Shown: positions 4,893 through 56,494, numbered from the stretch's first letter. The stretch: 64,000 nucleotides of DNA from Candidatus Parcubacteria bacterium (GCA_027450205.1 DAIDJL010000002.1:205007-269006); one strand, 5' to 3'. The notes: generated from the sequence alone by a model not told the origin. Made by a program: numbers and translations.

Positions 4893-4979
4893 TGTAAGAA
4901 TTATTAGTTTTTTTGTGTGAATACCTAGGGTTGTGGTATCCTAGGAAACATTCTAAACTTAAAGGGTGTGGATAAATTA

Positions 4980-5008: not shown

Positions 5009-5016
5009 CTGTTCCT

Positions 5017-5499: not shown

Positions 5500-5616
5500 A
5501 TAGTTGTTCTTTGAAATGGCGAATAATGGCCGTAGCCAAAAGGCATTGGAATGTCGATGCTTTCTGGCTACGGCTACGGATAGTAGTCCCTCTGGCAGAA
5601 AAAAGGAGAAAACACC

Positions 5617-7240: not shown

Positions 7241-7245
7241 AGTTG

Positions 7246-7578: not shown

Positions 7579-7717
7579 GGTTTGGGTCGTTAGAAGGTCG
7601 TTAATCCGCTGTGCGTCTCTTGCCCCCGTCGAGCAGGAAGTGGCAAGGTTCGAACACGGAGAAACACCTGATGAATCAGGCGGCCTAGAAGGATTCCATG
7701 AAATAAGTCCTAACTTG

Positions 7718-7788
7718 AGCGGGTAACGGGAGTCGAACCCGTGACTTCACCTTGGAAGGGTGACGTAATACCGTTATACAATACCCGC
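7718..7788 (-). tRNA. tRNA-Gly (anticodon TCC)
   Basis: Manual fold: acceptor GCGGGTA/TACCCGC, anticodon loop CTTCCAA, T-arm ACGGG-TTCGACT-CCCGT, discriminator T. CCA not encoded. Confidence 0.8.
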
Positions 7789-7860
7789 GGTATTTGCAGC
7801 ACGCATTGCGCTATCTGCGTGATTTAATCTACCATTCTTGCTTGCTTTTTTCAATCATTT

Positions 7861-23679: not shown

Positions 23680-24138
23680 ATGACATCCATCGGCGGCGTT
23701 TGCTATACTAAAAATATGAAACATACACAGGCGGTGCGAGAAGTGGGGAAATTCGTTTCGGGCCTTGTGACCGCCGACCTTATTACGGGGCTTTGGTTCC
23801 TTGCGTCCGGCACTCTTCCGCAGTGGCTTTTCGGGGTATATGTTACCGCACCGTTTGCATGGCTTTGGGTCGGATGCGATGTTTTCATACTGCTTGTGCT
23901 AGTGCATTATTCATGGCATCCAAAGGCACTCGAACCGCATACCTCAAGCCGTATGCTCTTTTCGGTGGTTGGCGTGATTATGGCTGCGGTCGCCCTCATC
24001 CATTTCCTCCGCCTCGTTTTCGGATGGTCGGTTGTGATCGGTGCATGGGATGCTCCGCTGTGGATCAGCTGGATCGGCGTGCTCGTCGCCGGATATATCT
24101 CGTACGCAAGTTTTCACCTTGCGTCTCGTAAAAATTGA
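23680..24138 (+). CDS. membrane protein (4 TM)
   Basis: Hydrophobic helices throughout; 152 aa (start may be 23716). Confidence 0.45.
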   Translation: MTSIGGVCYTKNMKHTQAVREVGKFVSGLVTADLITGLWFLASGTLPQWLFGVYVTAPFAWLWVGCDVFILLVLVHYSWHPKALEPHTSSRMLFSVVGVIMAAVALIHFLRLVFGWSVVIGAWDAPLWISWIGVLVAGYISYASFHLASRKN

Positions 24139-24215
24139 TTCAGCGTACATGGCGTTTAAAAGCCCCGAAGGGTCGGGGCTTTTAAACGAAATTTGTCCGG
24201 TATATTTTCATATGG

Positions 24216-24632
24216 TTATGACGAGAGCATGTTGTTGGCGGCAACTAGGTCGTTTTTTGCAGTGCCGAGCAATATGACCTCTCCGGTTCGTAGGTCAACA
24301 AGGCCGGAGACGATCGGGGCCAAGCCATTGATTTGTGATGTGATCGTTTTGATTTGCGCAGAGACTGCCGCTCGTTCGTCCGTCGTCGCAAGTGGCATGC
24401 CCGCGAGCGCGCTCGTTTCTTTGGCTGCCGCCGCAAGTTGTACGGTTGCGATCGCGGAAATGCTTTCCCTTTGGGCTTCAATTTTTGTCACCGAGGCGAT
24501 GATGTTACTTGCCTCGGACACCATATCTGCGGGAGTTTTTGCCGTGACGGTTGTTTGAGCGACGACACTCTCTGCAGTTGCAAGAATGGCAAGAACTCCG
24601 CACATCAATACCGACACACAGATTTTTTTCAT
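24216..24632 (-). CDS. secreted Ala-rich protein
   Basis: Signal peptide MKKICVSVLMCGVLAILATAESVVAQ; 138 aa. Confidence 0.45.
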   Translation of the reverse strand: MKKICVSVLMCGVLAILATAESVVAQTTVTAKTPADMVSEASNIIASVTKIEAQRESISAIATVQLAAAAKETSALAGMPLATTDERAAVSAQIKTITSQINGLAPIVSGLVDLRTGEVILLGTAKNDLVAANNMLSS

Positions 24633-24730
24633 TGCAATACGTGCGATATTTTATTTGCCGACCTTTCCCCTGCTTAGTAAGGAACGGAACAGCATTAAAA
24701 AATGTTACGTAGGGATAGGAGCTTGTTTTT

Positions 24731-24768
24731 GGGTGCCTGGGTGGAGGAAGTCAGAACCTGTTTGGGGG
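24731..24768 (+). repeat. Conserved intergenic element, family 2 copy D (GGGTGCCTGGGTGGAGGAAGTCAGAACCTGTTTG)
   Basis: Shares gggtgcctgggtg.agga.gtcagaacctgtttg with copies at 25794 and 27431. Confidence 0.65.
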
Positions 24769-24786
24769 CAAAGGGTTGAAAGTTTT

Positions 24787-25629
24787 CTAGAAACAGCCGC
24801 CGGAATCCATTTGTGCGGGGGCTAAATGCATATTCACCCAACCCTGCGGCGTATTTTCCATCGCACTGGTAAATTCTCCGTCGCCATTGATATATTCAAA
24901 TCTTACGGTGGCTTTGGAGGTATCAGAGGGGCAGAGCTGGTAATCTTTTACTGCCAGAGTGGTACTCGCATATTGAGCACCTAACCCTTTTATAAAAGGA
25001 GCTTCATTGTTATAGGCGGTTTGATAACTTATTTGGTCAATACAGGTGAGACTTCCCAAATAAGGGGTCTCTAAATCTAATCCCTCAGGACCTGCATTAA
25101 TCCAAACTTGAATCCTGCACCGCAGGCCGGACTGTGAACTATAATATGCGTTCGAGAACACAAAGCCGCCCACAGCCGAATAATCAGAATTGCCCGTTGA
25201 CTGATTTGTCTGTAACACAAAGCCATGTAGACCCATGTAGCCATCCACAGTTTTAATCAAGGCCGTATTGAAGTTATATGCGATCTGAGGTGAAAGCGAA
25301 GTTGTCGTGGGGGCAGATGATACGGAGATTGTCGCCGCGGCAAAAGTTAATGAGCTCGAAGCGTGAACATCGATTGGCGTGCCATCCTGGTCGATCCATA
25401 CCAGGTCGCCTAATGTTGCGTTGGTGGTATTGTACCCGAGTGTGGCAATCTTGCCTTGCAGATCCGCCGTGACTCCGGCGATGCTTGTAGTTGAACTAGC
25501 TGACTCACCCTGGGAAGAAGTGGAAATGATTCCGTTATGTTGCGATGTATAATACCAAAATCCTACCGCGGCAATGACGACGATCACTAAAACGATTACA
25601 ATAATCGTCGCGAAGCCATCCTTTTTCAT
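24787..25629 (-). CDS. membrane-anchored extracellular protein
   Basis: N-terminal signal anchor IIVIVLVIVVIAAVGFWYY; S/T-rich; 280 aa. Confidence 0.5.
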   Translation of the reverse strand: MKKDGFATIIVIVLVIVVIAAVGFWYYTSQHNGIISTSSQGESASSTTSIAGVTADLQGKIATLGYNTTNATLGDLVWIDQDGTPIDVHASSSLTFAAATISVSSAPTTTSLSPQIAYNFNTALIKTVDGYMGLHGFVLQTNQSTGNSDYSAVGGFVFSNAYYSSQSGLRCRIQVWINAGPEGLDLETPYLGSLTCIDQISYQTAYNNEAPFIKGLGAQYASTTLAVKDYQLCPSDTSKATVRFEYINGDGEFTSAMENTPQGWVNMHLAPAQMDSGGCF

Positions 25630-25793
25630 ATACTCACTGTATCACACCCCAGATACAGTTCTTTAATGGCGCAAGGGGATGGCAGGTCGCTGGCCAGAAC
25701 GTCGAGGTGTAATAGGCGGACTCGGGCACGTGAAGTTCTATTTCCCGTTAGGGGTATGCAAAATTAGCCCCATAAAATCTATCTAAAAATCGA

Positions 25794-25840
25794 TGGGTGC
25801 CTGGGTGAAGGATGTCAGAACCTGTTTGATCGGATTATAA
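25794..25840 (+). repeat. Conserved intergenic element, family 2 copy E
   Basis: gggtgcctgggtgaaggatgtcagaacctgtttgatcggattataaa; intergenic. Confidence 0.65.
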
Positions 25841-25891
25841 AAATGCGGCTTGCCCCTTTCGAAGCAAGCCGTTGATACATGCAGAGGAGTT

Positions 25892-26599
25892 CTAGAGAGA
25901 CACTCCCATTTTCCTGTCGTTCTCGTTGCGAAGCTCAATGTCCACGAATAGATTTCGCGAGTCGTTCCGGACGCGGGCAATCGCGAGAAGATGCGCGAGT
26001 TCATATCCCCAGAGGGACGCTGGAGAATCCTTCTGTAGGTATTCTCTGAGTTCCGTAAGCCAGGCCCGCGTTACCCGTTCGTTGAAGTCTCCCGTATGCT
26101 TGAGTCGTTCGCGGAGGATTCCAAGGACCATTTCCTTCTCGGCGGAAAGCAGCTCAACGTGATCCCTGCCGGGCATGATTGCTTCCCACAAGAACCGGAA
26201 GATCGCCTTTCCGAAATCGTCAAAGTTCTGCCCCCACTTGAAGGACAGGCGCTTCAGGATGTCCCCTCGGATTCCCATGAGGGATGGTTTTTCGGTGTCC
26301 TGAGGATCTTTGCGTCGGATGCTTCCTTTTGGGTAGGCATACATGAGCGCGAAGCAAAATTCGCGATCAATCCTCTCAACTTCATCGAAGTACTCGCGAT
26401 CTCCGGCGTGCTTCGGGTTGCCATCGGGCTTGATGAGTTCCGGTATGGCGCGAACTAGCTCACGGGCATAATCCTCTTGCGATTTGACGATCGCCTCCCG
26501 CAATGCACCAGAGAGGACGAGGAGGCGTTCGGATGAAGTGAGCCCTCCTGCGAGGCGCTTCACTAACGCAAGGTTTGTGGAATCACTAAACTGAGACAT
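25892..26599 (-). CDS. hypothetical cytoplasmic protein
   Basis: ORF, likely start MSQFSDS at 26599 (track extends to 26674); no recognised domain. Confidence 0.45.
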   Translation of the reverse strand: MSQFSDSTNLALVKRLAGGLTSSERLLVLSGALREAIVKSQEDYARELVRAIPELIKPDGNPKHAGDREYFDEVERIDREFCFALMYAYPKGSIRRKDPQDTEKPSLMGIRGDILKRLSFKWGQNFDDFGKAIFRFLWEAIMPGRDHVELLSAEKEMVLGILRERLKHTGDFNERVTRAWLTELREYLQKDSPASLWGYELAHLLAIARVRNDSRNLFVDIELRNENDRKMGVSL

Positions 26600-26716
26600 G
26601 GAATAGATGCTCCTTTCAAGATCTTTTCCCCTTGGAGAAAAGAGCGCTGTTTTGCCCTTGGGCAGAAACAACACGCTGATATCCGTATATCACTTAACTA
26701 CTTAAAAGTCCAGGAA

Positions 26717-27247
26717 ATGAAGCTGGGCCAGTTGATTGTGTGGTTCTACGGTAGCAAGCTTTCTGCTATGGATGATCTCTCGAATTACGACAAACTAAAG
26801 GAAGATGCCCAGCGATTTTATAGCAGCACTGGCCGGATTACCTCACCGGCATTTAATGAAGACATCTATTTTACCGCCGAGGGGTTCAACCACATCATCT
26901 ATAAGAGAGCCCGATCCGAGCGGGAGAAATCCTCGCAGATATTGCGTTTTAAACTCCTTCCTCTTGCGGTTAAGCTCATAAAACTTTCGACGACATTTCA
27001 GGAGTTTGAAGAAACACTCCAACAGTTTGAGGTAAAGAGCTTCAAGAAACGGGTGACGAAGAGTAAGCCGGTGAAGTACTGGGGTATCATCGCGATCATC
27101 GAGGGAAGAAAGATAAAAGTCATACTTCGCAAGATAGGCGATAACGGCCAGATGCATTTCTGGAGCATTGTTCCGGCGTGGACAACAAACAAATTCAGGG
27201 ATACGAGATTTTTCACAACGATGAAGGGCAACCCTGACGAAGACTAA
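26717..27247 (+). CDS. hypothetical protein (176 aa), divergent from 25892..26599
   Basis: ORF; basic C-terminal half; no recognised domain. Confidence 0.45.
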   Translation: MKLGQLIVWFYGSKLSAMDDLSNYDKLKEDAQRFYSSTGRITSPAFNEDIYFTAEGFNHIIYKRARSEREKSSQILRFKLLPLAVKLIKLSTTFQEFEETLQQFEVKSFKKRVTKSKPVKYWGIIAIIEGRKIKVILRKIGDNGQMHFWSIVPAWTTNKFRDTRFFTTMKGNPDED

Positions 27248-27414
27248 AAACAAAAACACCGCCAAAGGCGGTATCTTTGTCGTGCCTGCCTTCGGCTTAT
27301 GTATTAGCCGAATAGGGCTGACGCCCCACAAGCACATTTACATATTACACTTTTGGGGCGAAAATGCAACACGCATTTTATATGGATTTAATGAGCTTTC
27401 CATACCCCTCGGAC

Positions 27415-27476
27415 TAGGAAGTCAGAACTTGGGTGCCTGGGTGAAGGATGTCAGAATCTGTTTGATGAGATTATAA
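27415..27476 (+). repeat. Conserved intergenic element, family 2 copy F with partial internal duplication
   Basis: ggaagtcagaac (27417-27428) immediately precedes the full unit gggtgcctgggtgaaggatgtcagaatctgtttgatgagattataaa. Confidence 0.65.
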
Positions 27477-27743
27477 AAAAAAGCGGCCCGGATCGCTTAA
27501 TGCAACCCGAGCCATGGCCGCTCTTGGTCAGTAAATGTATTCACTGCGGTTAAGAGTGTTTTATCGCATATTCGTGTTATGGGTGGGCTAGTGGGGAAAA
27601 TTGGAAATTATCTTACCTCTTCGTCTCAATCCCTTTTTCTTACAGTCCAATCCATAACAATTGAGGCGTATACATCTCTAGGGACATTATTAATGCGAGG
27701 AGCTATTACAGGATTGATGGTTCGGGAGTCATTAACAACGTCA

Positions 27744-27773
27744 CGAGAGCTCATTTGACACCAAATACCCACT
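27744..27773 (+). promoter_or_regulatory. promoter with embedded CsoR-type operator palindrome (ATACCCACTAGGGGTAT)
   Basis: TTGACA 27744-27749, palindrome in the spacer, TATCAT -10; drives the csoR-like gene. Same architecture at 39104-39133. Confidence 0.6.
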
Positions 27774-27791
27774 AGGGGTATCATATGCTAT

Positions 27792-28061
27792 ATGAACCAG
27801 ATTATTAAGAAAAAAGCTTTGCGGCGCCTCCAGATTGTGAAAGGCCAAATTAAGGGCCTTGAAAAGATGATCGGTGATGAAAAATATTGTATTGATATTA
27901 TCACGCAATCATCTGCAATCAAGCAAGCACTTTCCGGCGTTGAGGGGTTGCTGCTCGAAAATCACCTCGCCACCCACGTAGCGATGCAGATGAAGGCCGG
28001 GCATGGCAAGAAAGCCGCTGATGAAATATTAAAAGTCTATAAATTATCACAACGAAGATAA
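27792..28061 (+). CDS. csoR: CsoR/RcnR-family metal-sensing transcriptional repressor
   Basis: 89 aa; family pattern ...L.RL.R..GQ..G...M......C.D...Q..A...AL......L...H. Confidence 0.75.
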   Translation: MNQIIKKKALRRLQIVKGQIKGLEKMIGDEKYCIDIITQSSAIKQALSGVEGLLLENHLATHVAMQMKAGHGKKAADEILKVYKLSQRR

Positions 28062-44631: not shown

Positions 44632-45903
44632 CTACCCTTCAAAAGCCTTTTTTAATATAGAGAAGACCACGAGTGCTGTAAATGCGATCACGGCAGCAAG
44701 CGCAAAAGCGTAGGACGGATCGATCGTCCACAGCCGTCCGGCAATGACGGATGCGGGCAGGTAGATAAGCCCGGTGACGAAGTTATAGAGGCCAATCGCC
44801 GAACCGCGTCGCGTGGGCTCCAAATCGGCAATGAACGCCTTGCTTTGTGCCTCATCGATGGCGTAGAACACGCCGAAGACGATAAAGAGGACGATAATCT
44901 CCCACTTGGCGAACGCGAACATGAACCCGGATGCCATTACGGCGTAGATGAGATAGCTCAGCATGATGACCCACGTGCGACCGATCCGATCGCCAAGCCT
45001 TCCCATTGGAATCGAAGCAATAACGAACGCGACATTGAACAGCGCATACAGAAGGATGACGTCCGCCACGGAAAAGCCGACAAGGTATGCTTTGAGGAGC
45101 AGGAATCCGAAGCTGAAATAGGCAAGCGAAAAGATGCTCGCGGGCACAAGATACCGCTTGAACGAGGGCGATAGCATCTTCCATGACACGAACATATTTT
45201 CTCGCTCATGCGGCGGGCCGGGGCGCTCTTTCATCACAAGGAGCACGACGACCGCGAGCGTGGCCACGATCGCCGCTCCGATAAAGAGAATATGGAAGCT
45301 ATGAAGGCTCTGCCCAAGCCAGGCAAAAAGAGCGAACGCCAAGAGCGGCCCCGCCACGGCGCCTGCCTTGTCCATCGCTTTATGCACACCGAACGAATAC
45401 CCGCGATCCGCTTCAGATGCAACTTCGGCAAGCCACGCATCCCGCGGCGGCCCGCGGAAGCTTTTCCCGAGGCGCTCGACGATGCGGAAGAGCGCGAGCG
45501 ACGATATCGAATTCGCCACGACGAGAAAGAATTTCGCGAGCGTGGAGAACCCATACCCCACGGCCGCAAGTGATTTTCGCTTGCCGCTGTGGTCGGATAG
45601 CCATCCCGAAAGATAATCGAGGGATGACGCCGAAAAATCCGCAAGTCCCTCCACGAGGCCGAGCAATGCTGCCGAGGCACCGGCGAATACAGTGAAGAAC
45701 ACCGCGAATACCGAAAATATTGCCTCCGAGCTCACGTCAGTGAGAAAACTCACGAGCCCGAGCCGTATCACGTCTGGATGAACCCCGAAACGGTGGCTAC
45801 CTTCATTCGTAGGCATATCGTCAATTATATCCGAGATTAATCGGTTGGGTATGCAAGCGGGTCGAGGTTGGAAATATAAGGCTCCAGTTGCCTTTTTGCG
45901 CAC
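44632..45903 (-). CDS. MFS transporter
   Basis: 12 TM; GRLGDRIGR (MFS loop 2-3 signature); 423 aa (start may be 45816). Confidence 0.8.
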   Translation of the reverse strand: MRKKATGALYFQPRPACIPNRLISDIIDDMPTNEGSHRFGVHPDVIRLGLVSFLTDVSSEAIFSVFAVFFTVFAGASAALLGLVEGLADFSASSLDYLSGWLSDHSGKRKSLAAVGYGFSTLAKFFLVVANSISSLALFRIVERLGKSFRGPPRDAWLAEVASEADRGYSFGVHKAMDKAGAVAGPLLAFALFAWLGQSLHSFHILFIGAAIVATLAVVVLLVMKERPGPPHERENMFVSWKMLSPSFKRYLVPASIFSLAYFSFGFLLLKAYLVGFSVADVILLYALFNVAFVIASIPMGRLGDRIGRTWVIMLSYLIYAVMASGFMFAFAKWEIIVLFIVFGVFYAIDEAQSKAFIADLEPTRRGSAIGLYNFVTGLIYLPASVIAGRLWTIDPSYAFALAAVIAFTALVVFSILKKAFEG

Positions 45904-46195
45904 GCAGGCGCTACACTTAACCCATAACTGAATATGATGGGGCGCAAGCCTCGGAGCCTAAACCTTCACCGGCATGGCTCATAAGACTCAAACCAGAATA
46001 CTGAACCCCGCGTTCAGCAACTCTGGTTTGAGCCGTACTGGGAAACTGGTACGGGACCGAAAGGTCTAGCTGACACGGGGTTCAGTGTTATTTCTTTCCG
46101 TGTCGGCTATCAAAGGCCGGCATTTTTGTTTATCAATTCGTGATCAAAATCAATCACAGAAAGAAAATTAAGGAGGATAGAAAATAACCAATACT

Positions 46196-47191
46196 ATGGC
46201 AAAAAGTAAAAATAAAAAGATTCCCGGGTGGGCATGGGCTGTCTCCGGCCTTCTTGTCGGCATTGTGGGTGCATGGATCGCGGTCGAATACACGGTTGCA
46301 ATAAACCAACCGACGAATAGCGGACAACCGATTACGGCGCCACAACCGGCTCAGAACCAGGCGGCCGTGCAGCAACAGCAAGCCCAACAGCAAATATCAC
46401 AGCAGGAGATCGCAAATCTCAAGACGGAGAATGCGCAGGCACAGACGACCTTGGCACAACAACAGGCCGAAATTGCGAAGCAGCAAGAGCTTTCGCAGCT
46501 CTTTACTATCGGCAACACGCTCCAGGACTATTACAACAAAATCCGTGATGCACAGAATCTCGGATCGGCATCATGTTCTTATGGGTCCCAGTGCGAAGTG
46601 AATTTCTGGGCAGTCTTGGCGAATAACATCAACAGTGGCACAAGCTATGAGGGAACGTACAACTCGCTCACTAACCAGGGTAATTCCGGCATGTACAGCG
46701 ATGCCGCGATGGCTGCGGGGAAGCAGCTCGATACCCTCGTATTCGCCCCGTATGCGGCTGATGTCATCTCAACGGATTCCGATGCGGTGAAGATCAAGAA
46801 AATCCTCGATTTCATCGATGCAAACCTCACCTATGAGCGTGACATGCAGGAAACGCCGCGGGCACCTGCCGAAACGCTCGGGCTAAGATCGGGGGACTGC
46901 AAGAGCTATTCAATTCTTGCGAGCGCGGCATTCTCGGTCGCCGGAGTACACTCGGCTGTTATGCAGGTGGAAAACGCAAGTGGGACGCTCGGCCATGCGA
47001 TGGTGCTTGTGCAGTCAAGCGAGAACTTACCACTTTCCGAATCATATTCTGATTTGACCTCGGTTGGCCTTCCTGCTGGGAGATGGTGGGTCATCGAGCC
47101 ACAGTACACCTATGAGGAGCAACAGCAGCACCCGGACTGGTTCTCGCAGTGGAAACTGGTACACGCCGCGCAGGTGGCGCTCAGGGGATAA
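46196..47191 (+). CDS. secreted Gln-rich protein with transglutaminase-like Cys-protease core
   Basis: Signal anchor, QQQ-rich coiled coil, then GDCKSYSILASAAF...GHAMV (Cys/His). Confidence 0.55.
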   Translation: MAKSKNKKIPGWAWAVSGLLVGIVGAWIAVEYTVAINQPTNSGQPITAPQPAQNQAAVQQQQAQQQISQQEIANLKTENAQAQTTLAQQQAEIAKQQELSQLFTIGNTLQDYYNKIRDAQNLGSASCSYGSQCEVNFWAVLANNINSGTSYEGTYNSLTNQGNSGMYSDAAMAAGKQLDTLVFAPYAADVISTDSDAVKIKKILDFIDANLTYERDMQETPRAPAETLGLRSGDCKSYSILASAAFSVAGVHSAVMQVENASGTLGHAMVLVQSSENLPLSESYSDLTSVGLPAGRWWVIEPQYTYEEQQQHPDWFSQWKLVHAAQVALRG

Positions 47192-47294
47192 AGATAAGGC
47201 GGGCTTATATAAGTTCCCTGCCCGATCTTACCCCATATATGCGGAAGGCAAAGTTGCTGATGTGAGGGGAAAGCGATACCGTTAAGGTATCCCA

Positions 47295-47660
47295 ATGGAC
47301 AATCAGCCCGTTAAAAAGTCCAAGAAAGCATGGTGGGTCATAGGTGGCATAGCGCTCGCCGTAACGATCGTTGGCATAGCGAGCGGTAATTCAAATACGC
47401 AAACTTCTGCACCTAACACTCAAACGGCGAATGTTTTCCAGCAGGTCGTTGCACCTACAGCGCCCACCCCACCAGCGCCAGCTATGCTTTCGAATAGCAA
47501 CTACTATACGAATTCCGACGGCAATACCGTTCACTCACCTGCGTATTCAAACGCTGTTCCTGTGGGAGCGACCGCGCAGTGCGCCGACGGGACATACAGC
47601 TTCAGCCAGCATCGCAGCGGCACGTGTTCGCATCACGGGGGAGTGGCGACGTGGCTATAA
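47295..47660 (+). CDS. DUF3761-like secreted protein
   Basis: TM, then YYTNSDGNTVHSP...CADGTYSFSQHRSGTCSHHGGVATWL. Confidence 0.5.
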   Translation: MDNQPVKKSKKAWWVIGGIALAVTIVGIASGNSNTQTSAPNTQTANVFQQVVAPTAPTPPAPAMLSNSNYYTNSDGNTVHSPAYSNAVPVGATAQCADGTYSFSQHRSGTCSHHGGVATWL

Positions 47661-47734
47661 ATCCCCCGTCCCTATTAATTTGCTGCTTGCCCTAGTCTGC
47701 TTACTTTGCGTGAAACATTACGCCGCCGTAGAAT

Positions 47735-50700
47735 GTGAGCATGAACGGCGATTTACAACCAAACACACAAGGGTTACCGGATGGGTTTAAGCGGGACGAT
47801 CATCAGGACTCAATTTATGAGCGCCTTAGGCGACTAGTAGGCCCCGGCCCTGCCGATTTTTACAATGACGCATGTAGGCATTTCGCTACCCAACCGCCTT
47901 TTTCCAGCGCCACCCACCTTATCGGGCATCTTATGCGCGAAATCGAAAGCGCCCTGCGAGATGTCTTAGAGCCGCTCGCCGATTCCACAAAATTGGCGGC
48001 GATCGATAAAAATAAAAAACACGACGGCACCATCAGGGTCATCTTGGACGCGCTCGGCATTCCCGAGTCAGATCCGATTGCGAAGGCCTGGCTGAGCATG
48101 GCCGGCGACGACGGATTGTACAGTCGGGCTCATCGGAATAATCTCGAGGCCGCGCGGCCGCTCGACGATGAATTTGTTGAATTTTGGGCGCAGTTCGAAT
48201 CGGTGTTGTCTGCGGTGCTCGACAAATTCGAGGGTCAGTATACAAAAGTATTCGAGACGATCGATGTTCTTGCGAAAAGATCGAATCCTACCGAGGGAGA
48301 TGCCAAGCTTTTCCTGTTGCATATCCCTAACGATTTCCTTTCCCGCACCCGTCTCTTCGATCAGATGATTGATCCCGGATGGCTGCCTTTATTGAAGGGG
48401 AAAGGGGTGTTCGATGAGGTGCCACGTCCAGAGCAGAATTTCGAAGAGCGTACCACGCGCTACTTGCCATGGCCGCCCGTGAATTACCTGATCAAAATGG
48501 CTCCACTGGATGGAAAGGCGGTGGCGGCCATCCTGCTTGCAGTGAAAGACAACGACAATGCCATAGCAAAAGGCAACCTTCTGACGATCGCTGCCAACCT
48601 TCCGAAAGAACAAAGGGAATCCATTCTGGAGAAGGCAAAGGAGTGGATGAAAACGCATCATCCGTTTTATGTAGTCGACGCAGCGAAGAAACTTGCCGGG
48701 CAATTTGCGGATGATGGGCAAACCGATTCAGCTCTCGAAATTGCGAGCACCCTCCTGGAAATTCTGCCCGATCCAAGATCGCAAGCCGGTGAGGAAAATA
48801 AGGCAGCATGGTTTTCTCCCGATCCCCAGACCCGCCTCGATGACTGGCAGTACGGAGAATTTTTGAAAAGGGATTTTCAGAAGATTGTTGCACTCGATCC
48901 GCAAAAAGCCTACGACCTCACGGCTCGGCTATTGTTGGATTTTGTGAACCTGAAGACAGGCCACTATCCCGATCACAATTTCGATGATGCGATGCACATC
49001 TCGTGCCCGTCTATCGGTGGAGGCGACGATCAGCGCGACTTCGATCGTCTGGAACGCATCTTGGTCCATGCGGTGCGCAGTACCGCAGAGGCCGTCGTGC
49101 AAAAAAATCCAGAGAAATTCCCCGCGGTAATTTCCGATTTGGAAGGCAAAAAATGGACCATCTTCCGGCGCATCGCCCTCTATATCCTGAGCGAAGCTCC
49201 TGATTCCATGCGAGATCTCATCGCGCAGCACCTCACGGACGATGCACTCTTTAATGATTCATCCTTTAGAGCAGAATACAAACTGCTTGCCGAGAAGAGG
49301 TTCCCATTGCTGACAAAAGAAGAGCAAGGCCTTATTTTCGGGTGGATCGAAAAAGCCGAACGGCCGAAGGAGATGATCGCGGCAGATAAAAACGAGTTCA
49401 CGCCGAAGCAGGCCGAAGATTATGTGAGACGGTGGCAACGAAATAAGCTCGATTATCTGGAAGGGCATCTTAACGACGATCTGAAGGAGCGCTACGCGAC
49501 GCTGCTGGCTACTCAGCCAGACCCCCCGGACGGCACCATCACCGAATGGTATGGTCCGACGAGCAGCCTGAACGCCCAGCAGTTGATCACTATGGATTCG
49601 TCCGCTATCATCGAGCACCTGAAGGCATGGGAACCGAAAAACGAGCATTTCGGTTTTGGTCCGACCAAAGAGGGGCTGGGCCGTGAAATTGTGTCTGCAA
49701 TCAAGCTGAAGCCGGAATTGTTCCGGGATCTCGCCGATGAATTTAAGGGGCTAGATCCGACCTATATCCGCTCTTACATCTCGGGATTTGAAGAGGTTGC
49801 CCGGAAAGGGACGGCGCTTGATTGGCCTGCAATGTTCTCGCTCATCCAGTGGGTTATGGATCAGCCGCGGGAGATGCCGGGCAGGAGGGGCGGCGATATG
49901 GATCAGGACCCCGACTGGGGATGGACGAGGAAAGCCATCGCTTCGCTTTTCACGCATGCGGCCAATGCGAACCAAATCCCATTCGAGATGAGAAAGCAGT
50001 TTTGGAAAGCGTTGGAGCCGCTTACCGACGATACGGATCCGACTCCAGGCAAGGAAAAAATCGATGAGAATTCATTTGCAAATGATGCCTACGGATGGAC
50101 GATCAACACAACCAGAGGGGAAGCGATGAGTGCACTGATCGAGTATGCATTGTGGGTATACCGCAACACGGAAAAACTCCCCAACGGGAAAGAGGAAATC
50201 AAAAAAGGATTCGGCATTATGCCCGAAGTGAAAGAAGTTCTAGAAAAACACCTCGATCCGAAGGTCGATCCTTCCATCGGAGTGCGTGCCGTCTATGGAA
50301 GGTTCTTGCCGTGGCTCATATTCATGGACGAACCCTGGGTCATTAAGAACCTCGAGAACATCTTCCATCGGGGTGAATTCGGCGAACCTCTTTACGCCGC
50401 CGCATGGGATACCTACATGATGCATGTCCCAGGCGCATACAATCGCCCTTTCGAAGTGCTGCAAGATCAGTACAAAGAAGCGGTGAGGAATCTCGGCAAG
50501 GTAAAAAGGAAACAGGGTCGGTTTACTGACCGCGATGAACGCGTCGCCGAACAATTAATGATCTTCTTTTGGCGCGACAAAGTTAAGCTGAGCGACAACC
50601 TTTTCAAGTCCTTTTGGGAGAATGCCGATGCCTCTCTCCGCGGTCATGCGATTAGCTTCGTCGGACGGAGCATCAAGAATATTGAAGATGTTCCGCCACC

Positions 50701-51139
50701 CGAGGTCATCGTCGCCCTAAAGGGACTCTGGCAGAACCGCATTGACGCACTCGCGAAAGCGGACGACAAAAAGCAATTCGCCGAAGAAATGGCTGCATTT
50801 GGCTGGTGGTTCGCATCGGGGAAGTTCGACGACGAATGGAGCGCGGCCCAGTATTTGGCCGCTCTCGACATCGGGACGAAATTCCAATCCGATCACTTCG
50901 TGCTGCAACGTCTTGTGGAATTGGTAAAAACAATGCCATTTGAAGCGGTGCGGATTTTGACCAAGCTGCTTTTGGCCAAGGATCAGGCGCAATGGAGGGT
51001 GGCAGGGAATAAAAATGAAATCACGCAAATCCTTTTGGCGGGGTTAGGCAGTGCAGATTCAACCGCTCAAAATGAAGCACGGGATTTGATCAATCGATTG
51101 GTGGCAAGAGGATACGACGATTTTCAGGCATTACTTTAA
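47735..51139 (+). CDS. large (1134 aa) cytoplasmic alpha-helical repeat protein of unknown function
   Basis: Uninterrupted ORF, no signal peptide, no P-loop recognised by eye; immediately followed by a protease gene. Confidence 0.7.
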   Translation: MSMNGDLQPNTQGLPDGFKRDDHQDSIYERLRRLVGPGPADFYNDACRHFATQPPFSSATHLIGHLMREIESALRDVLEPLADSTKLAAIDKNKKHDGTIRVILDALGIPESDPIAKAWLSMAGDDGLYSRAHRNNLEAARPLDDEFVEFWAQFESVLSAVLDKFEGQYTKVFETIDVLAKRSNPTEGDAKLFLLHIPNDFLSRTRLFDQMIDPGWLPLLKGKGVFDEVPRPEQNFEERTTRYLPWPPVNYLIKMAPLDGKAVAAILLAVKDNDNAIAKGNLLTIAANLPKEQRESILEKAKEWMKTHHPFYVVDAAKKLAGQFADDGQTDSALEIASTLLEILPDPRSQAGEENKAAWFSPDPQTRLDDWQYGEFLKRDFQKIVALDPQKAYDLTARLLLDFVNLKTGHYPDHNFDDAMHISCPSIGGGDDQRDFDRLERILVHAVRSTAEAVVQKNPEKFPAVISDLEGKKWTIFRRIALYILSEAPDSMRDLIAQHLTDDALFNDSSFRAEYKLLAEKRFPLLTKEEQGLIFGWIEKAERPKEMIAADKNEFTPKQAEDYVRRWQRNKLDYLEGHLNDDLKERYATLLATQPDPPDGTITEWYGPTSSLNAQQLITMDSSAIIEHLKAWEPKNEHFGFGPTKEGLGREIVSAIKLKPELFRDLADEFKGLDPTYIRSYISGFEEVARKGTALDWPAMFSLIQWVMDQPREMPGRRGGDMDQDPDWGWTRKAIASLFTHAANANQIPFEMRKQFWKALEPLTDDTDPTPGKEKIDENSFANDAYGWTINTTRGEAMSALIEYALWVYRNTEKLPNGKEEIKKGFGIMPEVKEVLEKHLDPKVDPSIGVRAVYGRFLPWLIFMDEPWVIKNLENIFHRGEFGEPLYAAAWDTYMMHVPGAYNRPFEVLQDQYKEAVRNLGKVKRKQGRFTDRDERVAEQLMIFFWRDKVKLSDNLFKSFWENADASLRGHAISFVGRSIKNIEDVPPPEVIVALKGLWQNRIDALAKADDKKQFAEEMAAFGWWFASGKFDDEWSAAQYLAALDIGTKFQSDHFVLQRLVELVKTMPFEAVRILTKLLLAKDQAQWRVAGNKNEITQILLAGLGSADSTAQNEARDLINRLVARGYDDFQALL

Positions 51140-51175
51140 GCCGCGCTTATAAAAATCTGATAGAGTTAATTTGTC

Positions 51176-51874
51176 ATGATCCCGGACTTAATTCTTACGG
51201 GTGTAACTCTCATTAAAACATTCTCGACCGAATTGGCGGGGCAGAAAACCCGGCCGATTCCGGTCGATATGGCAACGGGGTTCTTCTACTCGCGCACCGA
51301 AAAGCTTTATCTGATTACGAATAAGCACGTCATCTATGGAGATTATTTTTGGAGCGAGGCAGCCACGCCACAGGTCAGCCTGTTTAGTATTCTGCTATAT
51401 GAAAATCCAAAAGATTTAACGCAGAAAAAATGGGTTGATATGCCCTTGGTGGTGGACGACAGGAATATATGGCTGGAACATCTTCGAAGGGTTGATGTCG
51501 TAGCAATCCCGCTCCCGCCAGACATCAACCCGCAGAATTACGCGGTCACTCCGCTCGTCAGTTTTTCTTCGCCCGTTGCCAATACCGACATCTTCACCGT
51601 TGGCTATCGGCGAGATTTATTTAACGCGGCTACTCCGGAGCCGATCGATGAGATCGAGCCAATTATGACGACAGGCCGCCTGTTAAGAGTCGCTCCGACA
51701 AGGATGCCCGCAGATATAGAAACTCACGTCGGGATGAGCGGCAGTCCGGTCTTTGCGGGATTGCCGGACAGGAACAACGAACTCATCGGAGTCCATTCAG
51801 GCCAAAATTCGGGACTCGCCGTGGTTTGGAATGCGAAGCTGATATCGGAGATAATCGAGCAACTTCCGCAATAG
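51176..51874 (+). CDS. cytoplasmic trypsin-like (S1/chymotrypsin-fold) serine protease
   Basis: His (ITNKHVI), Asp (VDVVAIPL), Ser (GMSGSPVF) triad in the correct order; no signal peptide; 232 aa. Confidence 0.65.
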   Translation: MIPDLILTGVTLIKTFSTELAGQKTRPIPVDMATGFFYSRTEKLYLITNKHVIYGDYFWSEAATPQVSLFSILLYENPKDLTQKKWVDMPLVVDDRNIWLEHLRRVDVVAIPLPPDINPQNYAVTPLVSFSSPVANTDIFTVGYRRDLFNAATPEPIDEIEPIMTTGRLLRVAPTRMPADIETHVGMSGSPVFAGLPDRNNELIGVHSGQNSGLAVVWNAKLISEIIEQLPQ

Positions 51875-52030
51875 CAGATTTTATCTGCGAATCATCACTC
51901 ACCTATTTTGGAAAGGATCATCAAAGGTAGAAAACTTGATATGTGGAGGAAAGGGCAGGGCGTAATCACGAGTGACTAATAAGATTCCTGAAATATTGAC
52001 GGCCGTGATTTTCGCGGGTATGGTGCGGGA

Positions 52031-52414
52031 ATGACCCCGACTTCGACGGCCCAGTTTATCACAGATCTATTTCAAAAGACGGAGGTACTCGCGGAACAGC
52101 AGGCTGCAGTGTTTCTGAAGATGCTCTTGATATCGGTCTGGACATACTTCAAGCCATATCTTCCTTATGTCGTAACGATCCTCTTTGGCGGGCTGATCAT
52201 TGCGTCGGTGAAGGCGATGTTCGGGAAAACGGGCATGTTGGGCAGTCTGCTTTACCACATTTTCTATTTCGCCGTTCTGGGCATCGTGCTTTGGATCATG
52301 GGACTACAACTCGTTTTCAATCCCTATTTTGATTTGGTCTGTTTTGTCATCTATCGTCTGTGTTACTGGTTGACCGGCATTGTCTTGGAAAAATTTAAAC
52401 ATGCGCGATTATAA
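52031..52414 (+). CDS. membrane protein (4 TM)
   Basis: 127-aa hydrophobic ORF. Confidence 0.4.
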   Translation: MTPTSTAQFITDLFQKTEVLAEQQAAVFLKMLLISVWTYFKPYLPYVVTILFGGLIIASVKAMFGKTGMLGSLLYHIFYFAVLGIVLWIMGLQLVFNPYFDLVCFVIYRLCYWLTGIVLEKFKHARL

Positions 52415-52945
52415 TTTTATCTTCTCTTTCTTCTTTGATCGAATTTCCAATCGCGCGCCTCGCTTAGGGAAGACGATAACGTGCTCGGACTGGTATCTGT
52501 TTTGTCGATAATCCTCGAATTCAATCGTGAGCACAAGCACGCCGTCACCGCCGAAATCATCTTTGCTGATCGGAATCCGATAACCATCCGAAGGAACGGC
52601 GGCATAGTCCAATAACTGCGGCGTTCCTTTCTGGAACCAATAGCGGTTGAGATATACGGTATATGTGCCAACACTCTTCACGATAACATCCATGTTCTGC
52701 GGCTGGAAGTAGCCCGTCGCGGCGGCCTCTGGCAGAGAATTGACCGGGATTGCTTGTACCGACAGTTCCACGAAATGCTCGGCGTCCGTCTGCTTTGCCT
52801 GCAACGCCTTTATGCCTTCGTTGATTTCATTCTGCTTCTCGCCGATCTTCTTGGCGCAATAAGCTGCCCACCATGCGACGCCAACGGCGATTACGGCTGC
52901 GGCGGCAGCAACCCATGTGGCTACGGTCTGACTCGTGTTGTCCAT
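52409..52945 (-). CDS. membrane-anchored protein
   Basis: N-terminal TM WVAAAAAVIAVGVAWWAAY; 178 aa. Confidence 0.4.
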   Translation of the reverse strand: MDNTSQTVATWVAAAAAVIAVGVAWWAAYCAKKIGEKQNEINEGIKALQAKQTDAEHFVELSVQAIPVNSLPEAAATGYFQPQNMDVIVKSVGTYTVYLNRYWFQKGTPQLLDYAAVPSDGYRIPISKDDFGGDGVLVLTIEFEDYRQNRYQSEHVIVFPKRGARLEIRSKKKEKIKL

Positions 52946-52999
52946 ACGATAATTATATTCAAATCAGAAAAACATCCTAGGAAGTGGTAAAATATCCCC

Positions 53000-53476
53000 A
53001 TGAGTCGCCCATCAAAAAAGATTACCCCTAGCGAACCAAAGGCACTAGTCATTCAGAAAAGGCTAGAGTATGTCGTCGTGCCTAAGGAGTCCGCCTTAAA
53101 GATCGTGCGGGATATGCTCGGCGCGGATAAAGCAATCATTTTCAGCAAGGACGCTATACCGAAAGAGCTTTTCCTCACCAGATCCGGTGAATTATATCGC
53201 GGCGACAACCGTGCGCAGTTTTCATTCATGTTCGAAAACCGCCGTGCCGCTCTTATTAGGGCGTTCCTCGGAAATGGAAATGATTTTATTCCAGGCGTGG
53301 ACCTCCAGGAAGAGGCTGGGTATAAAACCAAGGAGTCGATGTATAAGGCCATCGACGCTATCAATATGAACGTACGGCGTCAGCTCGGCATCCAGGAAAA
53401 GGAATTGATTGAAAGTAGGGGTGCTAAGGGCTTCCGCATCACTCCCGCGTACAAAATTATCCGCGCAAAAGAGTAG
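53000..53476 (+). CDS. winged-helix DNA-binding protein (OmpR/CadC-type C-terminal effector-like)
   Basis: ...MYKAIDAINMNVRRQLG...ESRGAKGFRI resembles the trans_reg_C wing. Confidence 0.4.
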   Translation: MSRPSKKITPSEPKALVIQKRLEYVVVPKESALKIVRDMLGADKAIIFSKDAIPKELFLTRSGELYRGDNRAQFSFMFENRRAALIRAFLGNGNDFIPGVDLQEEAGYKTKESMYKAIDAINMNVRRQLGIQEKELIESRGAKGFRITPAYKIIRAKE

Positions 53477-54027
53477 GCTCCGCTCATTATCCGAGTGGAG
53501 TGTATAGTCGAACTGAAAACGCCCCTTTCAGGAGCTTTTTTGTCTTAAAACTCCACTCGCACTCCAATCGACCGCCTTGAAGGGTCGGGTTCTAATGAGT
53601 ACATGGAGCGTGATGGAAGAGACGTATCTAAAAAAAGGGGGTCAGGAAGCAAGTCAGCGAAAGAATCCGCTGAAAGGCAGGCTGGCGTAGCAGTGACCGT
53701 AGACCTGAATCGCTCGGACGGATTTTATGTTGCTCACTTCGGTCAATCACTCCCATGTTGACCGACGCCCAGGTTGAAAAATACCGGGCGCTTTATCGCA
53801 AACGCTTCGGTAAGGAGATCAGCAAGGAGGATGCCTTTGAACAAGGCACTAGGTTTGTGCGCCTCGTGGAGCTTATCCGTAGGCCGATGGCCACGGAAGA
53901 ATATAAGGCGATACCGACTCGCCACTTAGAAAAGAGTCGGGCCACCAATGAGCCTCCATAATGTCCCTATATAACGTGATCTAGAAGGGGTATCAAGGTC
54001 AAAAATCAACCACATTCAACAAAAAAT

Positions 54028-54456
54028 ATGAATGAAAACAATGAAGACGTGGATCTCGCGGCACTTTTAGCTAAGAATCGCGATGAAAGGGAAACAATAC
54101 GATGGCTGAAGCGGCGTCAAAAAAATAGAACCTATTATCTCGAACATAAGGGCGTGATTAAGGAGCGGTCGCTAAAAAATTATTACCTAAAGCGAGAGGA
54201 AAAAGAACAAGCGGAGAAAATACAAGGAATGGGTACTGAACAATCGGCGGAAAGGATTGGCAGGTACGTCATCCTGGTATTCTGGGCTTCATGCATATTT
54301 GCCGGGATGGCAGTCGCCGTGTGGTTGTCGAACAAGCAGAAAAAACCGGACGCGTTGTCCTTGAATCAAGGAAATAAGGAATCGGATGTCGAAGAGGGAA
54401 ATTCATCAAGTTTTCCGTTTGAAAAGCCTCAAGCCAAGTATTGGGGATTAGGGTAG
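54028..54456 (+). CDS. membrane protein with charged coiled-coil N-terminus
   Basis: 142 aa; one TM. Confidence 0.35.
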   Translation: MNENNEDVDLAALLAKNRDERETIRWLKRRQKNRTYYLEHKGVIKERSLKNYYLKREEKEQAEKIQGMGTEQSAERIGRYVILVFWASCIFAGMAVAVWLSNKQKKPDALSLNQGNKESDVEEGNSSSFPFEKPQAKYWGLG

Positions 54457-54653
54457 ACTATCCACTTTCATTATGCACTATTGATGGAAAATACCAATTG
54501 CGCCATAATAACAAGGCACACAGTCATCGGGTTCGCGGGCTTTTGTATTCAAAAAGGGGTAGCTCCGTACAAGCGTCCGCGAGGATGATTGTGTGCAACG
54601 GGGCTATCCCTTTTTGCGTATAAAGGCCGGAAAATAAAAACCAATAAATTACA

Positions 54654-56252
54654 ATGGAAAAATCAGCAGAGAAAATTAAATACTTCATGTACGCTCGCAA
54701 ATCGTCCGAGAGCGAGGATCGGCAGATGGCGTCTATCGAATCCCAGATTGACGAGCTGAAAAAGCTTGCCAAAGAAAACAATCTCGAGATCGTCGAGGTG
54801 TTTTCCGAATCAAAGTCGGCGAAAGCGCCGGGTCGCACGGAGTTCAGGAAAATGATCGAGCGCATTCAGGAAGGTGAAGTACAAGGTGTCATCTGCTGGA
54901 AGCTGAACCGGCTGGCGAGGAATCCTGTTGATGGCGGGGAAATCAGCTGGCTGCTTCAGCAGAGTGTCATCAAGCACATCCAGACGTATGGGCGGAGCTA
55001 TTACCCGACCGATAACGTCTTAATGATGAGCGTGGAGTTCGGCATGGCGAACCAATTTGTGAAGGACTTGAGCGTGGATACGAAGCGCGGCATGCGGGCA
55101 AAGGCGGAGCGAGGATGGTGTCCCGGTCCGGCTCCCGTCGGATATCTCCATAATCCCATTAAGAAACAGGGCGAAAAGGAGGTTCTTTCCGATGAAAAGC
55201 GTTTTGGCATCGTCTCAAAATGCTGGGCGATGATGCTCATGGGAGCGCATACGGTGCCACAGGTGTGGGAGGTTGCGGTGAACCGGTGGGGCCTTACCGG
55301 TCGCATGGGGAAGAAGCTCAGTTTGAGCAACATGTATGCTTTGTTTGCTAATCCCTTCTATTGCGGAGAGTTTGAGTATCCTCTTGGAAGCGGTATCTGG
55401 CATCAGGGGAAGCACGAGCCGATGATTACCCGGAAAGAATTCGAGCGCGTGCAGACCATTATGGGCTGGGGCAACAAGTCACGGCGGAAGACGCATGACA
55501 TTTCCATGCGCGGCCCGATCCTGTGTGGGGAGTGCGGCGCAATGATTACAGCCGAGGAGAAAGTCAAAATCCAAAAGAATGGAAATCGCCATGAATACAC
55601 TTACTACCACTGTACTGGGCGAAAAAACAAGAATTGCTTGCAGAAGCGCATCCGCATTGAAGAGAAGGAGTTAGAGCGACAGGTTAAGGAAATCTTTTCA
55701 AAGGTTGAAATCCCGCAGGAGTTTTATGAGTGGGCCATGGATGTATTACGCGAGTCGAATGAGGCGGAGTCGACAACTCGTGCGAAGATCACCGACAGTC
55801 AGCGGGCAGAATACGATCGTAGCGTGAAGATGATCGACGCCATCATCGATATGCGGGCGCGTGGCGAAATCACCGAGGAAGAGTTTACGCGACGCAAGAC
55901 ATCGCTGCTTACGGAAAAACATCACTTACAAGGGCTTATTAACGATGCCGACAAAGGTGTAGATGATTGGCTCGCAACGGCCGACAAGTATTTCAACTTC
56001 GCGGCGAATGCCAAGCGGAAGTTCGAAAACGGCACATCCGACGAGATCCGGGAGCTACTAACCCTCTTAGGTTCGGACCTCCTCTTAACGCAAGGAAAAC
56101 TCAGTGTTTCCTTGGCCGAACCACTCATCGTGATCGAAAAATTAGCGCCGGGAGCACGACTCATAAATGAGAGGTTTGGACCTGCAAAAAATGCAGAAGA
56201 TATAAAGGAATTAAGAACGTTATACGCTCAAAATTCAACAAGGGGTGCCTAA
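54654..56252 (+). CDS. large serine recombinase (resolvase catalytic domain plus recombinase and zinc-ribbon domains)
   Basis: N-terminal YARKSSESEDRQMASIESQ (catalytic Ser region), recombinase domain, Cys4 CGECG...C..C, C-terminal coiled coil; stop codon lies inside tRNA-His. Confidence 0.85.
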   Translation: MEKSAEKIKYFMYARKSSESEDRQMASIESQIDELKKLAKENNLEIVEVFSESKSAKAPGRTEFRKMIERIQEGEVQGVICWKLNRLARNPVDGGEISWLLQQSVIKHIQTYGRSYYPTDNVLMMSVEFGMANQFVKDLSVDTKRGMRAKAERGWCPGPAPVGYLHNPIKKQGEKEVLSDEKRFGIVSKCWAMMLMGAHTVPQVWEVAVNRWGLTGRMGKKLSLSNMYALFANPFYCGEFEYPLGSGIWHQGKHEPMITRKEFERVQTIMGWGNKSRRKTHDISMRGPILCGECGAMITAEEKVKIQKNGNRHEYTYYHCTGRKNKNCLQKRIRIEEKELERQVKEIFSKVEIPQEFYEWAMDVLRESNEAESTTRAKITDSQRAEYDRSVKMIDAIIDMRARGEITEEEFTRRKTSLLTEKHHLQGLINDADKGVDDWLATADKYFNFAANAKRKFENGTSDEIRELLTLLGSDLLLTQGKLSVSLAEPLIVIEKLAPGARLINERFGPAKNAEDIKELRTLYAQNSTRGA

Positions 56253-56315
56253 CGGGAATCGGACCCGTATTGCCGCTGCCACAGAGCGGAGCTTTACCAT
56301 TAAGCTATAGGCACC
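56244..56315 (-). tRNA. tRNA-His (anticodon GTG) with genomically encoded G-1
   Basis: G-1 plus acceptor GTGCCTA/TAGGCAC, D-arm GCTT-AATGGTA-AAGC, anticodon stem CCGCT/AGCGG with loop CTGTGGC, T-arm ACGGG-TCCGATT-CCCGT, discriminator C. Confidence 0.8.
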
Positions 56316-56494
56316 ATCATTGGTTGCGGCCACCATCATTGAATTTGCCGCCCCTGGCGGGCGGCCCATCCGCATCATTAATGTACACGGCTTTGGCTGA
56401 TTTTTCAATATTTTGGGAGTATGATTAGGGCATGGTGTAGTACTCATTACCGTTTTGAGGGGTCATATTAATCAGCTAATTTTACGCACATTCC

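Follow-up and report, generated by a model that had tools for sequence, protein, structure and literature searches.

The 64,000-nucleotide stretch of a Candidatus Parcubacteria genome analysed here (GCA_027450205.1, DAIDJL010000002.1:205007-269006; hereafter the window, whose numbering is used unless the locus of a relative, such as L007, is named) contains what is probably a genomic island of about 10-12 kb, inserted at the tRNA-His gene by its own large serine recombinase (LSR) and having its right end at 56242-56246. The LSR gene (54654..56252, plus strand) encodes an intact protein of 532 aa and runs into the host target gene, tRNA-His(GTG), which lies on the minus strand at 56242..56314 as placed by ARAGORN (Rfam RF00005 at 56244-56314, 63.7 bits). 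The TAA stop codon of the LSR, at 56250-56252, falls 9-11 nt within the antisense tRNA-His sequence, opposite tRNA positions ~65-67 on the 3' acceptor/T-stem strand. An earlier examination of the DNA by itself, referred to below as the sequence-only reading, had described a stop codon within the acceptor strand of the tRNA and had proposed an integrative island tied to the LSR at the tRNA 3' end. ARAGORN, Rfam and the sequence bear out the first of these statements, and the second is upheld by the variable cargo of related islands, by the absence of the island from L007 and by the movement of the recombinase between hosts.

The recombinase and its overlap with tRNA-His

The window enzyme is a bona fide large serine recombinase, as its matches in Pfam, PHROG and the PDB and its alignment with homologues all indicate. 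The Resolvase domain (PF00239, E 2.9e-21, residues 11-154) is accompanied by Recombinase (PF07508, E 3.5e-6) and Zn_ribbon_recom (PF13408, E 1e-6) domains, the latter two both exceeding the Pfam gathering scores. The catalytic Ser17 lies within the motif YARKSS; in the alignment of 40 homologous sequences Y13-A-R-K-S17 is invariant, as are the zinc-ribbon Cys ligands C291, C294, C320 and C328. Among the NCBIfam models the protein resembles those of CcrB and XisF, but all of its NCBIfam matches are far below the cut-offs, and the LSR is therefore placed in a separate subfamily. A tblastn search with the LSR found no second resolvase-domain gene and no LSR paralogue in the 64-kb window.

The enzyme also matches PHROG 95 'integrase' (E 2e-56) and, in the PDB, SPbeta SprA/YokA and the A118 integrase (residues 67-182). 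Such likeness to phage integrases is what a prophage, or a phage remnant with a serine integrase, would be expected to display, but we give that explanation next to no credence. The LSR is the sole PHROGs match among nine island open reading frames (ORFs), the Dsr1-like and Trypsin_2 genes described below lying outside that scan; IMG/VR scans with the protein and with a 40-sequence profile yielded no close relative, the single match being 40% identical; and what the related islands carry is not virion genes but restriction-modification (RM) systems, plasmid-like replication genes and a reverse transcriptase.

A homologue search returned 5272 sequences at E<=1e-10, and the C-termini of the best 120 were classed. 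The homologues thus number in the thousands, at ~55% identity, and many are annotated as Patescibacteria. A literature search combining Patescibacteria with serine recombinase produced nothing relevant, and the LSR family was not found described in the literature searched. In the best 120 homologues a conserved tail, ..RLEPxKN..LYSQSPxLLRG, precedes C-termini that are variable. In 33 of these 120 the protein continues into an antisense T-arm, with the residues xDSNxRP or RESDP (that is, GATTCGAAC, the antisense T-loop) always at Tyr+11 residues; 54 have their stop codon at most 6 residues from the junction; and in at least 18 the C-terminus extends as ..DxVRT (GTTCGAAC), the V always standing at Tyr+13 residues.

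The LSR gene of the window ends in ..aca agg ggt gcc TAA, where the 3' end of the tRNA starts at the middle base of agg. The tRNA-His has the G-1 residue, an acceptor stem of 8 bp and encoded C74 and C75. An antisense overlap between LSR and tRNA-His is also present in L001, L004, L086 and L089, while tRNA-Asn is overlapped in the same manner by a 55%-identical LSR in L096-L101, the overlap being 13 nt in the case of P0029. Because the same antisense arrangement recurs both at the tRNA-His genes of relatives and at tRNA-Asn, it is not a matter of chance.

Variable occupancy, the junction and the crossover

In the relatives L001-L005, L086 and L087, LSRs 92-95% identical to that of the window lie in the same orientation at tRNA-His. 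Their cargo bears no relation to that of the window island, some having an MmeI-like RM system with a reverse transcriptase and others a full type I RM system. What the window island has in common with them is limited to the LSR, the ~120 bp preceding the LSR gene and a small ORF (53755-53961). The order LSR, tRNA-His, SHMT is kept by relatives with differing cargo, and the presence and content of the island vary among related genomes at the same locus, L007 being without it and L001, L004, L086 and L087 having other cargo there. Nowhere was the same block found at a different location, without the recombinase, in all related genomes. In L086, a tyrosine-recombinase (Phage_integrase) gene lies directly upstream of the LSR of the type I RM island (L086 1920-3029, minus strand); it may have a part in shuffling hsdS or provide mobility of a second kind.

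Two relatives show what looks like decay of such islands. L007 belongs to a Candidatus Parcubacteria metagenome-assembled genome (MAG) whose SHMT is 85% identical to that of the window (77% for a Doudnabacteria MAG), identities that place the window in the Patescibacteria; it is collinear with the window over 27.8-43.1 kb and again from 56.16 kb on. Between its DoxX-like gene and its tRNA-His there are just 75 bp plus a 78-bp remnant of the LSR 3' end, ~150 bp in all. The remnant (L007 9755-9831) is 90% identical to the last 29 LSR codons, and a 1-nt deletion breaks its reading frame. In L089 (SHMT 93%; LSR at L089 2369-3689) the LSR is without its first 93 codons. L007 and L089 are most simply understood as deletion remnants of earlier islands, and the islands of the relatives appear to have been eroded by deletion from the left, with the tRNA-proximal end kept.

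L007 could instead be taken as a genuine empty attB, in which case the crossover would lie ~80 bp downstream of the tRNA, near 56164, and the last 29 LSR codons would be host-encoded (B'). The homology between L007 and the window does start exactly at 56164 and amounts to 90% over 82 nt, above that of the neighbouring intergenic DNA. We nevertheless regard a crossover at this place as improbable. The 29-codon tail is conserved as protein, with the motif given above, in 55%-identical LSRs at other tRNAs and in other phyla, which host DNA cannot explain, and it travels with the LSR when the type of tRNA-His changes (L086) or when the tRNA is absent (L090). Moreover, the L007 copy is frameshifted by its 1-nt deletion, and L089 shows another deletion endpoint inside the LSR. 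The 78-bp remnant was rejected as a mark of the crossover on these four grounds.

The place of the junction is indicated by what follows the LSR. A tail of the window type, identical through ..CAACAAGGGGT, joins three different right-hand sequences: the tRNA-His of the window (GCCTAACGGGAATCGG..), the L086-type tRNA-His (GCCTATCGGGACTCG..) and, in L090, non-tRNA DNA (CTTAGTTATGGACGTATT..), the L090 LSR tail matching the window up to 56246. Since one tail is joined to three right-hand sequences, the breakpoint must lie at or before 56246/56247, in the sequence GGGGT (tRNA positions ~71-75). Between the window and L086, identity stops just beyond the shared acceptor-stem sequence, through GGGGTGCCTA. 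The sequence-only reading had the element re-supply the tRNA terminus; the junction is indeed at the tRNA end, but the element re-supplies at most about 5 nt (56242-56246, C72/A71 to C75) and no long 3' segment. The LSR may recombine attP with attB at a 2-bp crossover without long homology; the absence of a flanking repeat and the confinement of the breakpoint to GGGGT are indirect signs of this.

The tRNA-His genes of the window and L086 are identical at 50/73 nt, though the LSRs beside them are 95% identical. Because such closely similar LSRs adjoin tRNA bodies so different, the tRNA is to be seen as a host gene and the LSR module as moving between hosts. Were the tRNA-His itself element-borne, with the real insertion site elsewhere, for example on the tRNA 5' side, one could account for the fact that the tRNA-His genes of the window and L001 are identical at 71/73 positions although SHMT is only 50% identical, and for the short copies of the tRNA 5' end that lie right of the gene in both. 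That is very unlikely, however: the tRNA-His type found beside the L086 recombinase is, together with its right flank, also that of L091, which has other occupants; the island-free L007 and L088 have tRNA-His at the same syntenic place, upstream of SHMT; and L090 is without a tRNA after the same LSR tail.

The likeness of the tRNA-His genes does not follow host kinship: the window gene is identical at 71/73 positions to that of L001 (SHMT 50%), at 67/73 to that of L088 (SHMT 93%) and at 63/73 to that of L007 (SHMT 85%), a pattern that may reflect exchange of the tRNA plus island ends via homologous recombination. Of the duplications, the window has a short one (56308-56338; GGCACCATCATTG / GGCCACCATCATTG), in which the tRNA-His 5' end and leader recur just right of the gene, while in L001 a 19-nt exact repeat of the tRNA 5' end, at 11645-11663 and 11784-11802, occurs 139 bp apart and is accompanied by a degenerate 5' half of the tRNA. 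Recombination on the 5' side of the tRNA may have left these copies as scars.

For insertion by the LSR at the tRNA 3' end the following mechanism is proposed. In the free element, attP would lie across the LSR gene's 3' end, with the final 8-10 codons (..LYAQNSTRG) serving as the P arm. The LSR would bring this attP together with an attB in which the tRNA acceptor stem plus T-arm make up the right half (B'), and strand exchange would take place within the terminal GGGGT, tRNA positions ~71-75. After integration, the LSR gene would point into the tRNA with a stop codon borrowed from the antisense strand of the tRNA, which would itself be left intact. Comparison of LSR tails and right arms places the putative attR at 56217..56270, made up of the P arm, the crossover in GGGGT at 56242-56246, and B'.

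The assignment of the half-sites turns on a difference in spacing. Where the junction includes a tRNA (window, L096), a T-loop-like heptamer starts at Tyr+35 nt; where it lacks one (L090, L091, L106), the start is at Tyr+40. In structural work on the A118 integrase with attP, the zinc-ribbon motif is reportedly offset by 5 bp between attP and attB half-sites. Because the outer motif shifts by a constant 5 nt, as it does in LSR half-sites, the tRNA side is presumably B' and the tRNA-less side P'. L091 and L106 have mobile-element genes on both sides of their tRNA-less junctions (primase, AAA_25, Phage_CRI, HTH_17, methylases), and L106 has no tRNA within 10 kb.

The region L091 10001-20613 is composite or tandem: a first LSR, 76% identical to that of the window, is followed by a tRNA-less attP-like junction, then by 8.7 kb of cargo (Dcm methylase, MutH, Phage_CRI, HTH_17) and then by a second LSR. 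This second enzyme, 43% identical, reads into tRNA-His, from which it follows that two LSR subfamilies use the same tRNA end.

LOOT RNA, the left end and the cargo

The left part of the island is marked by a LOOT RNA unit (45905..46133, plus strand), composed of an upstream block at ~45905-45954 (including CATAACTGAATAT), the Rfam match at 45955-46067 and a hairpin with T-run at 46100-46133. The match to RF03000 scores 70.7 bits against a gathering score of 46.4 and covers model positions 1-121 of 121. The upstream block is conserved in alignment and promoter-like (CATAACTGAATATAAG), and the 3' hairpin is terminator-like according to a terminator scan. The same Rfam family was found in L001 (4889-5015, minus strand), L004 (2004-2128, plus), L087 (6576-6702, plus), L091 (6711-6828, minus) and L096 (7712-7832, minus); in all, it is present in 5 of the 9 distinct LSR islands examined (including L001/L087, L004, L091/L092 and L096/L098) and in none of six island-free or host-only loci (L007, L088, L093, L094, L102, L103). 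A 199-nt segment at the end of L102 that appeared LOOT-like by eye was rejected, having no Rfam match at E<=0.01. Each LOOT copy precedes a cargo operon in the same orientation, at a distance of 33-130 nt from the first gene, although the operons so led differ, encoding an RM system, PG_binding and Trypsin_2 proteins, or the transglutaminase-like and Dsr1-like proteins of the window. Because it recurs within LSR islands and is absent from host-only loci, the RNA belongs to the island. We know of no function assigned to it; the present finding gives LOOT RNA its first genomic context.

The left boundary that the sequence-only reading placed near 45.95-46.15 kb is therefore to be abandoned: the feature there is the LOOT RNA, which is part of the island, and the island end must be at or left of ~45.905 kb. 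Comparison with relatives would put it between 44.60 and 45.905 kb, L102 (DoxX 89% identical) being collinear with the window only to 44595; the L007 comparison would allow 43.19 kb. An MFS transporter gene (44632..45816, minus strand; Pfam MFS_1), with its start codon set by a 100%-identical 394-aa protein (P0121), lies within the segment that varies against L102 and L007, and its membership in the island is uncertain. It failed as a marker of the boundary, since homologues 65-85% identical are common in Patescibacteria in unrelated host contexts.

The sequence-only reading had also suggested comparing 45.9-46.2 kb with the tRNA-His 3' end for an attL core, but no repeat or core was found there or elsewhere in the window. 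Direct-repeat searches with the tRNA 3' 25-mer (<=3 mismatches) and with all 10-14-mers of 56200-56340 gave matches at chance level only and no shared 14-mer, and blastn-short of 56100-56330 and of the L007 flank against the window likewise gave only chance-level matches. Scans for a P' arm, made with the right arms of L090 and L091 and with the P arm reverse-complemented, gave best scores that did not exceed those obtained elsewhere in the window. Two candidates were set aside: a 13-nt inverted match at 48174-48186 as an att repeat (it lies within the Dsr1-like ORF and has E 0.17), and a match to 'AAGCGGGTCGA' at 45853 as a P' arm (its score is below background). Absence of a long repeat is not unexpected in itself, because a serine recombinase would not produce one.

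Several results weigh against the insertion of the island by its LSR as set out above. No attL, P'-like arm, tRNA fragment or repeat is to be seen across the 64-kb window, and the window island contains no recognisable replication, transfer or excisionase genes. An uninterrupted tRNA-His locus was not seen in relatives: in none of them is the tRNA-His 3' flank naive (an untouched attB), L007 keeping 78 bp of the LSR and so not representing precise excision. The difference in GC is small. As for the tRNA-less junctions, L090, read over 1.2 kb, may equally represent a composite island, a free element or another site of integration, and L091 shows that such a junction can sit within a larger integrated array; and the ungapped dyad symmetry of the putative attP sites is no better than that of shuffled sequence and is not used here as evidence.

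The want of a left att site is also the chief point in favour of a fixed relic, that is, an island integrated as proposed that has since lost its left att site, so that excision is impossible and the LSR persists without current function. The lack of excisionase and replication genes agrees with this, as does progressive deletion in the relatives, seen in the truncated LSR of L089 and the 78-bp remnant of L007. We consider such a relic unlikely, though clearly deserving of attention, since the LSR ORF is full length and has kept every family-invariant residue, the attR side is indistinguishable from those of relatives, and the attL of a serine recombinase may be too degenerate to be recognised without the attP of this particular element. 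Of an island inserted by its LSR, the window copy may nonetheless be stranded, because attL was not found.

The GC content is 0.506 in 45905-56241, as against 0.543-0.550 in the flanks and 0.524 in the whole window, the dip coming mostly from 50-56 kb. The block had earlier been described as lower in GC; that is real but modest, and GC lower than that of the island is found at 1-8000 (0.472), which contains tRNA-Gln, tRNA-Gly and tRNA-Ile, and at 24000-28000 (0.483).

The cargo of the island would be accessory in nature. Besides the LOOT leader it comprises two secreted proteins, one transglutaminase-like and one of the DUF3761 type, and a Dsr1-like protein accompanied by a protease resembling trypsin. 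The transglutaminase-like gene (46196..47191, plus strand; PF04473, E 6.9e-8, and PF01841) is the first downstream of LOOT and is followed by that for the DUF3761 protein (47295..47660, plus; PF12587, E 4.8e-28); by hydropathy, each product has an N-terminal transmembrane (TM) or signal segment. Pfam matches confirm these two calls of the sequence-only reading, as well as that of the protease. The 1134-aa protein it had noted is likewise present (47735..51139, plus) and is a candidate anti-phage defence cargo: in PADLOC it corresponds, over residues 421-1034, to the C-terminal 60% of Dsr1 (PDLC04166, E 2.4e-41), with 29 bits for NCBIfam Dsr1 against a cut-off of 1400. Its N-terminal 420 aa have no match to SIR2 or to anything else in Pfam or the PDB. 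Paired with it is a Trypsin_2 serine protease gene (51176..51874, plus; PF13365, E 3.7e-9, with weak PADLOC matches to LmuA and PDC-S45). To judge from these matches, 47735-51874 may be a Dsr1 variant with the protease as effector. Sites of this kind are occupied in related islands by RM systems and a reverse transcriptase, and the site would therefore be a place where defence and accessory genes are exchanged.

The small membrane proteins reported earlier do have predicted TM segments: two such ORFs without family matches occupy 52031..52945, one of 127 aa (plus strand, 3 TM) and one of 178 aa (minus strand, N-terminal TM). Next come an ORF of 158 aa (53000..53476, plus; no Pfam match even at E<=1), the small ORF of the integration-proximal module (53755..53961, plus; 68 aa) and an ORF of 142 aa with one predicted TM segment (54028..54456, plus). 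The 68-aa ORF is 56-63% identical by tblastn to the ORF after DUF5659 in L001, L004 and L087; family and PHROGs searches gave it no match, and it is a candidate accessory or directionality factor. The winged-helix regulator of the sequence-only reading was not confirmed, the 142-aa and 158-aa ORFs having no match in Pfam (E<=1), PHROG or the PDB; the 158-aa ORF may be the one meant, and all that speaks for it is a motif-level resemblance noticed by eye near its C-terminus (...RGAKGFRITP...).

Comparison with known integrases and islands

The window LSR shares its architecture (resolvase catalytic domain, recombinase domain, zinc ribbon with coiled coil) with the enzymes of phiC31, Bxb1 and A118, with SPbeta SprA and with CcrAB and XisF. 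These enzymes, like that of the window, leave no long flanking repeats, and the outer motif of their attP-type arm lies 5 nt further out than that of the attB-type arm. Their known targets are protein-coding genes or intergenic sites, however, whereas the window LSR is found at the extreme 3' end of a tRNA gene. It also differs from them in that its attP would overlap its own last codons, the end of the ORF being set by the sequence across the junction. For attP sites inside an element's gene there are precedents among tyrosine recombinases: in archaeal integrases of the SSV1 type, attP lies inside the int gene itself and the target is a tRNA, and in mycobacteriophages BPs and Brujita the C-terminus of the repressor changes on integration. 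Here the enzyme is a serine integrase, and only its final residues and stop codon would be exchanged. As to the target, the filamentous Ralstonia phage phiRSM, in work of Askora et al. from 2011, is said to use a small serine recombinase and an attB at the tRNA-Ser 3' end, with a 13-bp core common to attP and attB. That enzyme is small and resolvase-like, without the recombinase and zinc-ribbon domains; it sets a precedent as regards the target but not as regards the class of enzyme.

Among described systems, the Dehalococcoides ssrA islands, which carry the CcrB-like LSR DsiB (PMC3146451), come closest. These islands are likewise ~10-12 kb in size and LSR-bearing, and lie at the 3' region of the tmRNA gene with the integration module beside the target; they form tandem arrays with variable accessory cargo (PMC3146451), and L091 likewise has a tandem or composite array. 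Further traits of theirs are insertion within the T-loop, a target repeat of 20 bp and a small serine recombinase accompanying the LSR, the DsiB/DsiA type (PMC3146451). In contrast, the window island has no repeat, its junction is at the acceptor end, no second resolvase accompanies it, and the targets are true tRNAs (His, Asn). Genomic islands of the Islander type, which use tyrosine integrases (PMC4383910), resemble it in lying at a tRNA 3' end with the integrase tRNA-proximal and the tRNA functional, and in their variable cargo and patchy presence. Their signature, a displaced tRNA 3' fragment as distal direct repeat (PMC4383910), is absent here, and the enzyme is a serine and not a tyrosine recombinase. 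According to PMC4383910, serine-family integrases are not known to target tRNA genes; the large LSR survey of Durrant et al. considered only protein-coding targets and never mentions tRNA.

Taken together, these comparisons permit a wider reading, plausible but put forward tentatively and with somewhat less than even confidence. The LSR would belong to an integrase family thousands strong, mostly of Patescibacteria or the Candidate Phyla Radiation (CPR), undescribed in the literature searched and specialised for extreme tRNA 3' ends, its zinc ribbon reading the T-arm as an attB half-site. With attP lying over the last codons of the integrase, free (555-605 aa) and integrated (532 aa) forms would have different C-termini, a possible sensor or switch of the integration state, and LOOT would be an element-borne conserved leader or regulator of the delivered cargo and not a host small RNA, as it is now filed. 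If true, a widespread LSR family at tRNA 3' ends would fill a gap in target choice, tRNA genes being classic sites of tyrosine integrases; it would explain the exchange of defence and accessory genes in CPR bacteria, whose mobile elements are poorly known; and it would offer genome engineering integrases with a short, highly conserved and predictable attB in the tRNA acceptor and T-arm.

A final observation concerns the tRNA-Asn sites. In L093 a group I intron (3328-3578, plus strand) interrupts a tRNA gene missed by ARAGORN, the 3' exon of which ends near 3633. This tRNA adjoins S30AE/def/fmt, the genes that flank the tRNA-Asn/LSR site in L096; it was considered as an empty tRNA-Asn site and rejected, the host and the tRNA sequence both being different. 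Intron-containing tRNA-Asn and tRNA-Asp genes are reported from Patescibacteria (PMC13011429), and L093 fits that pattern.

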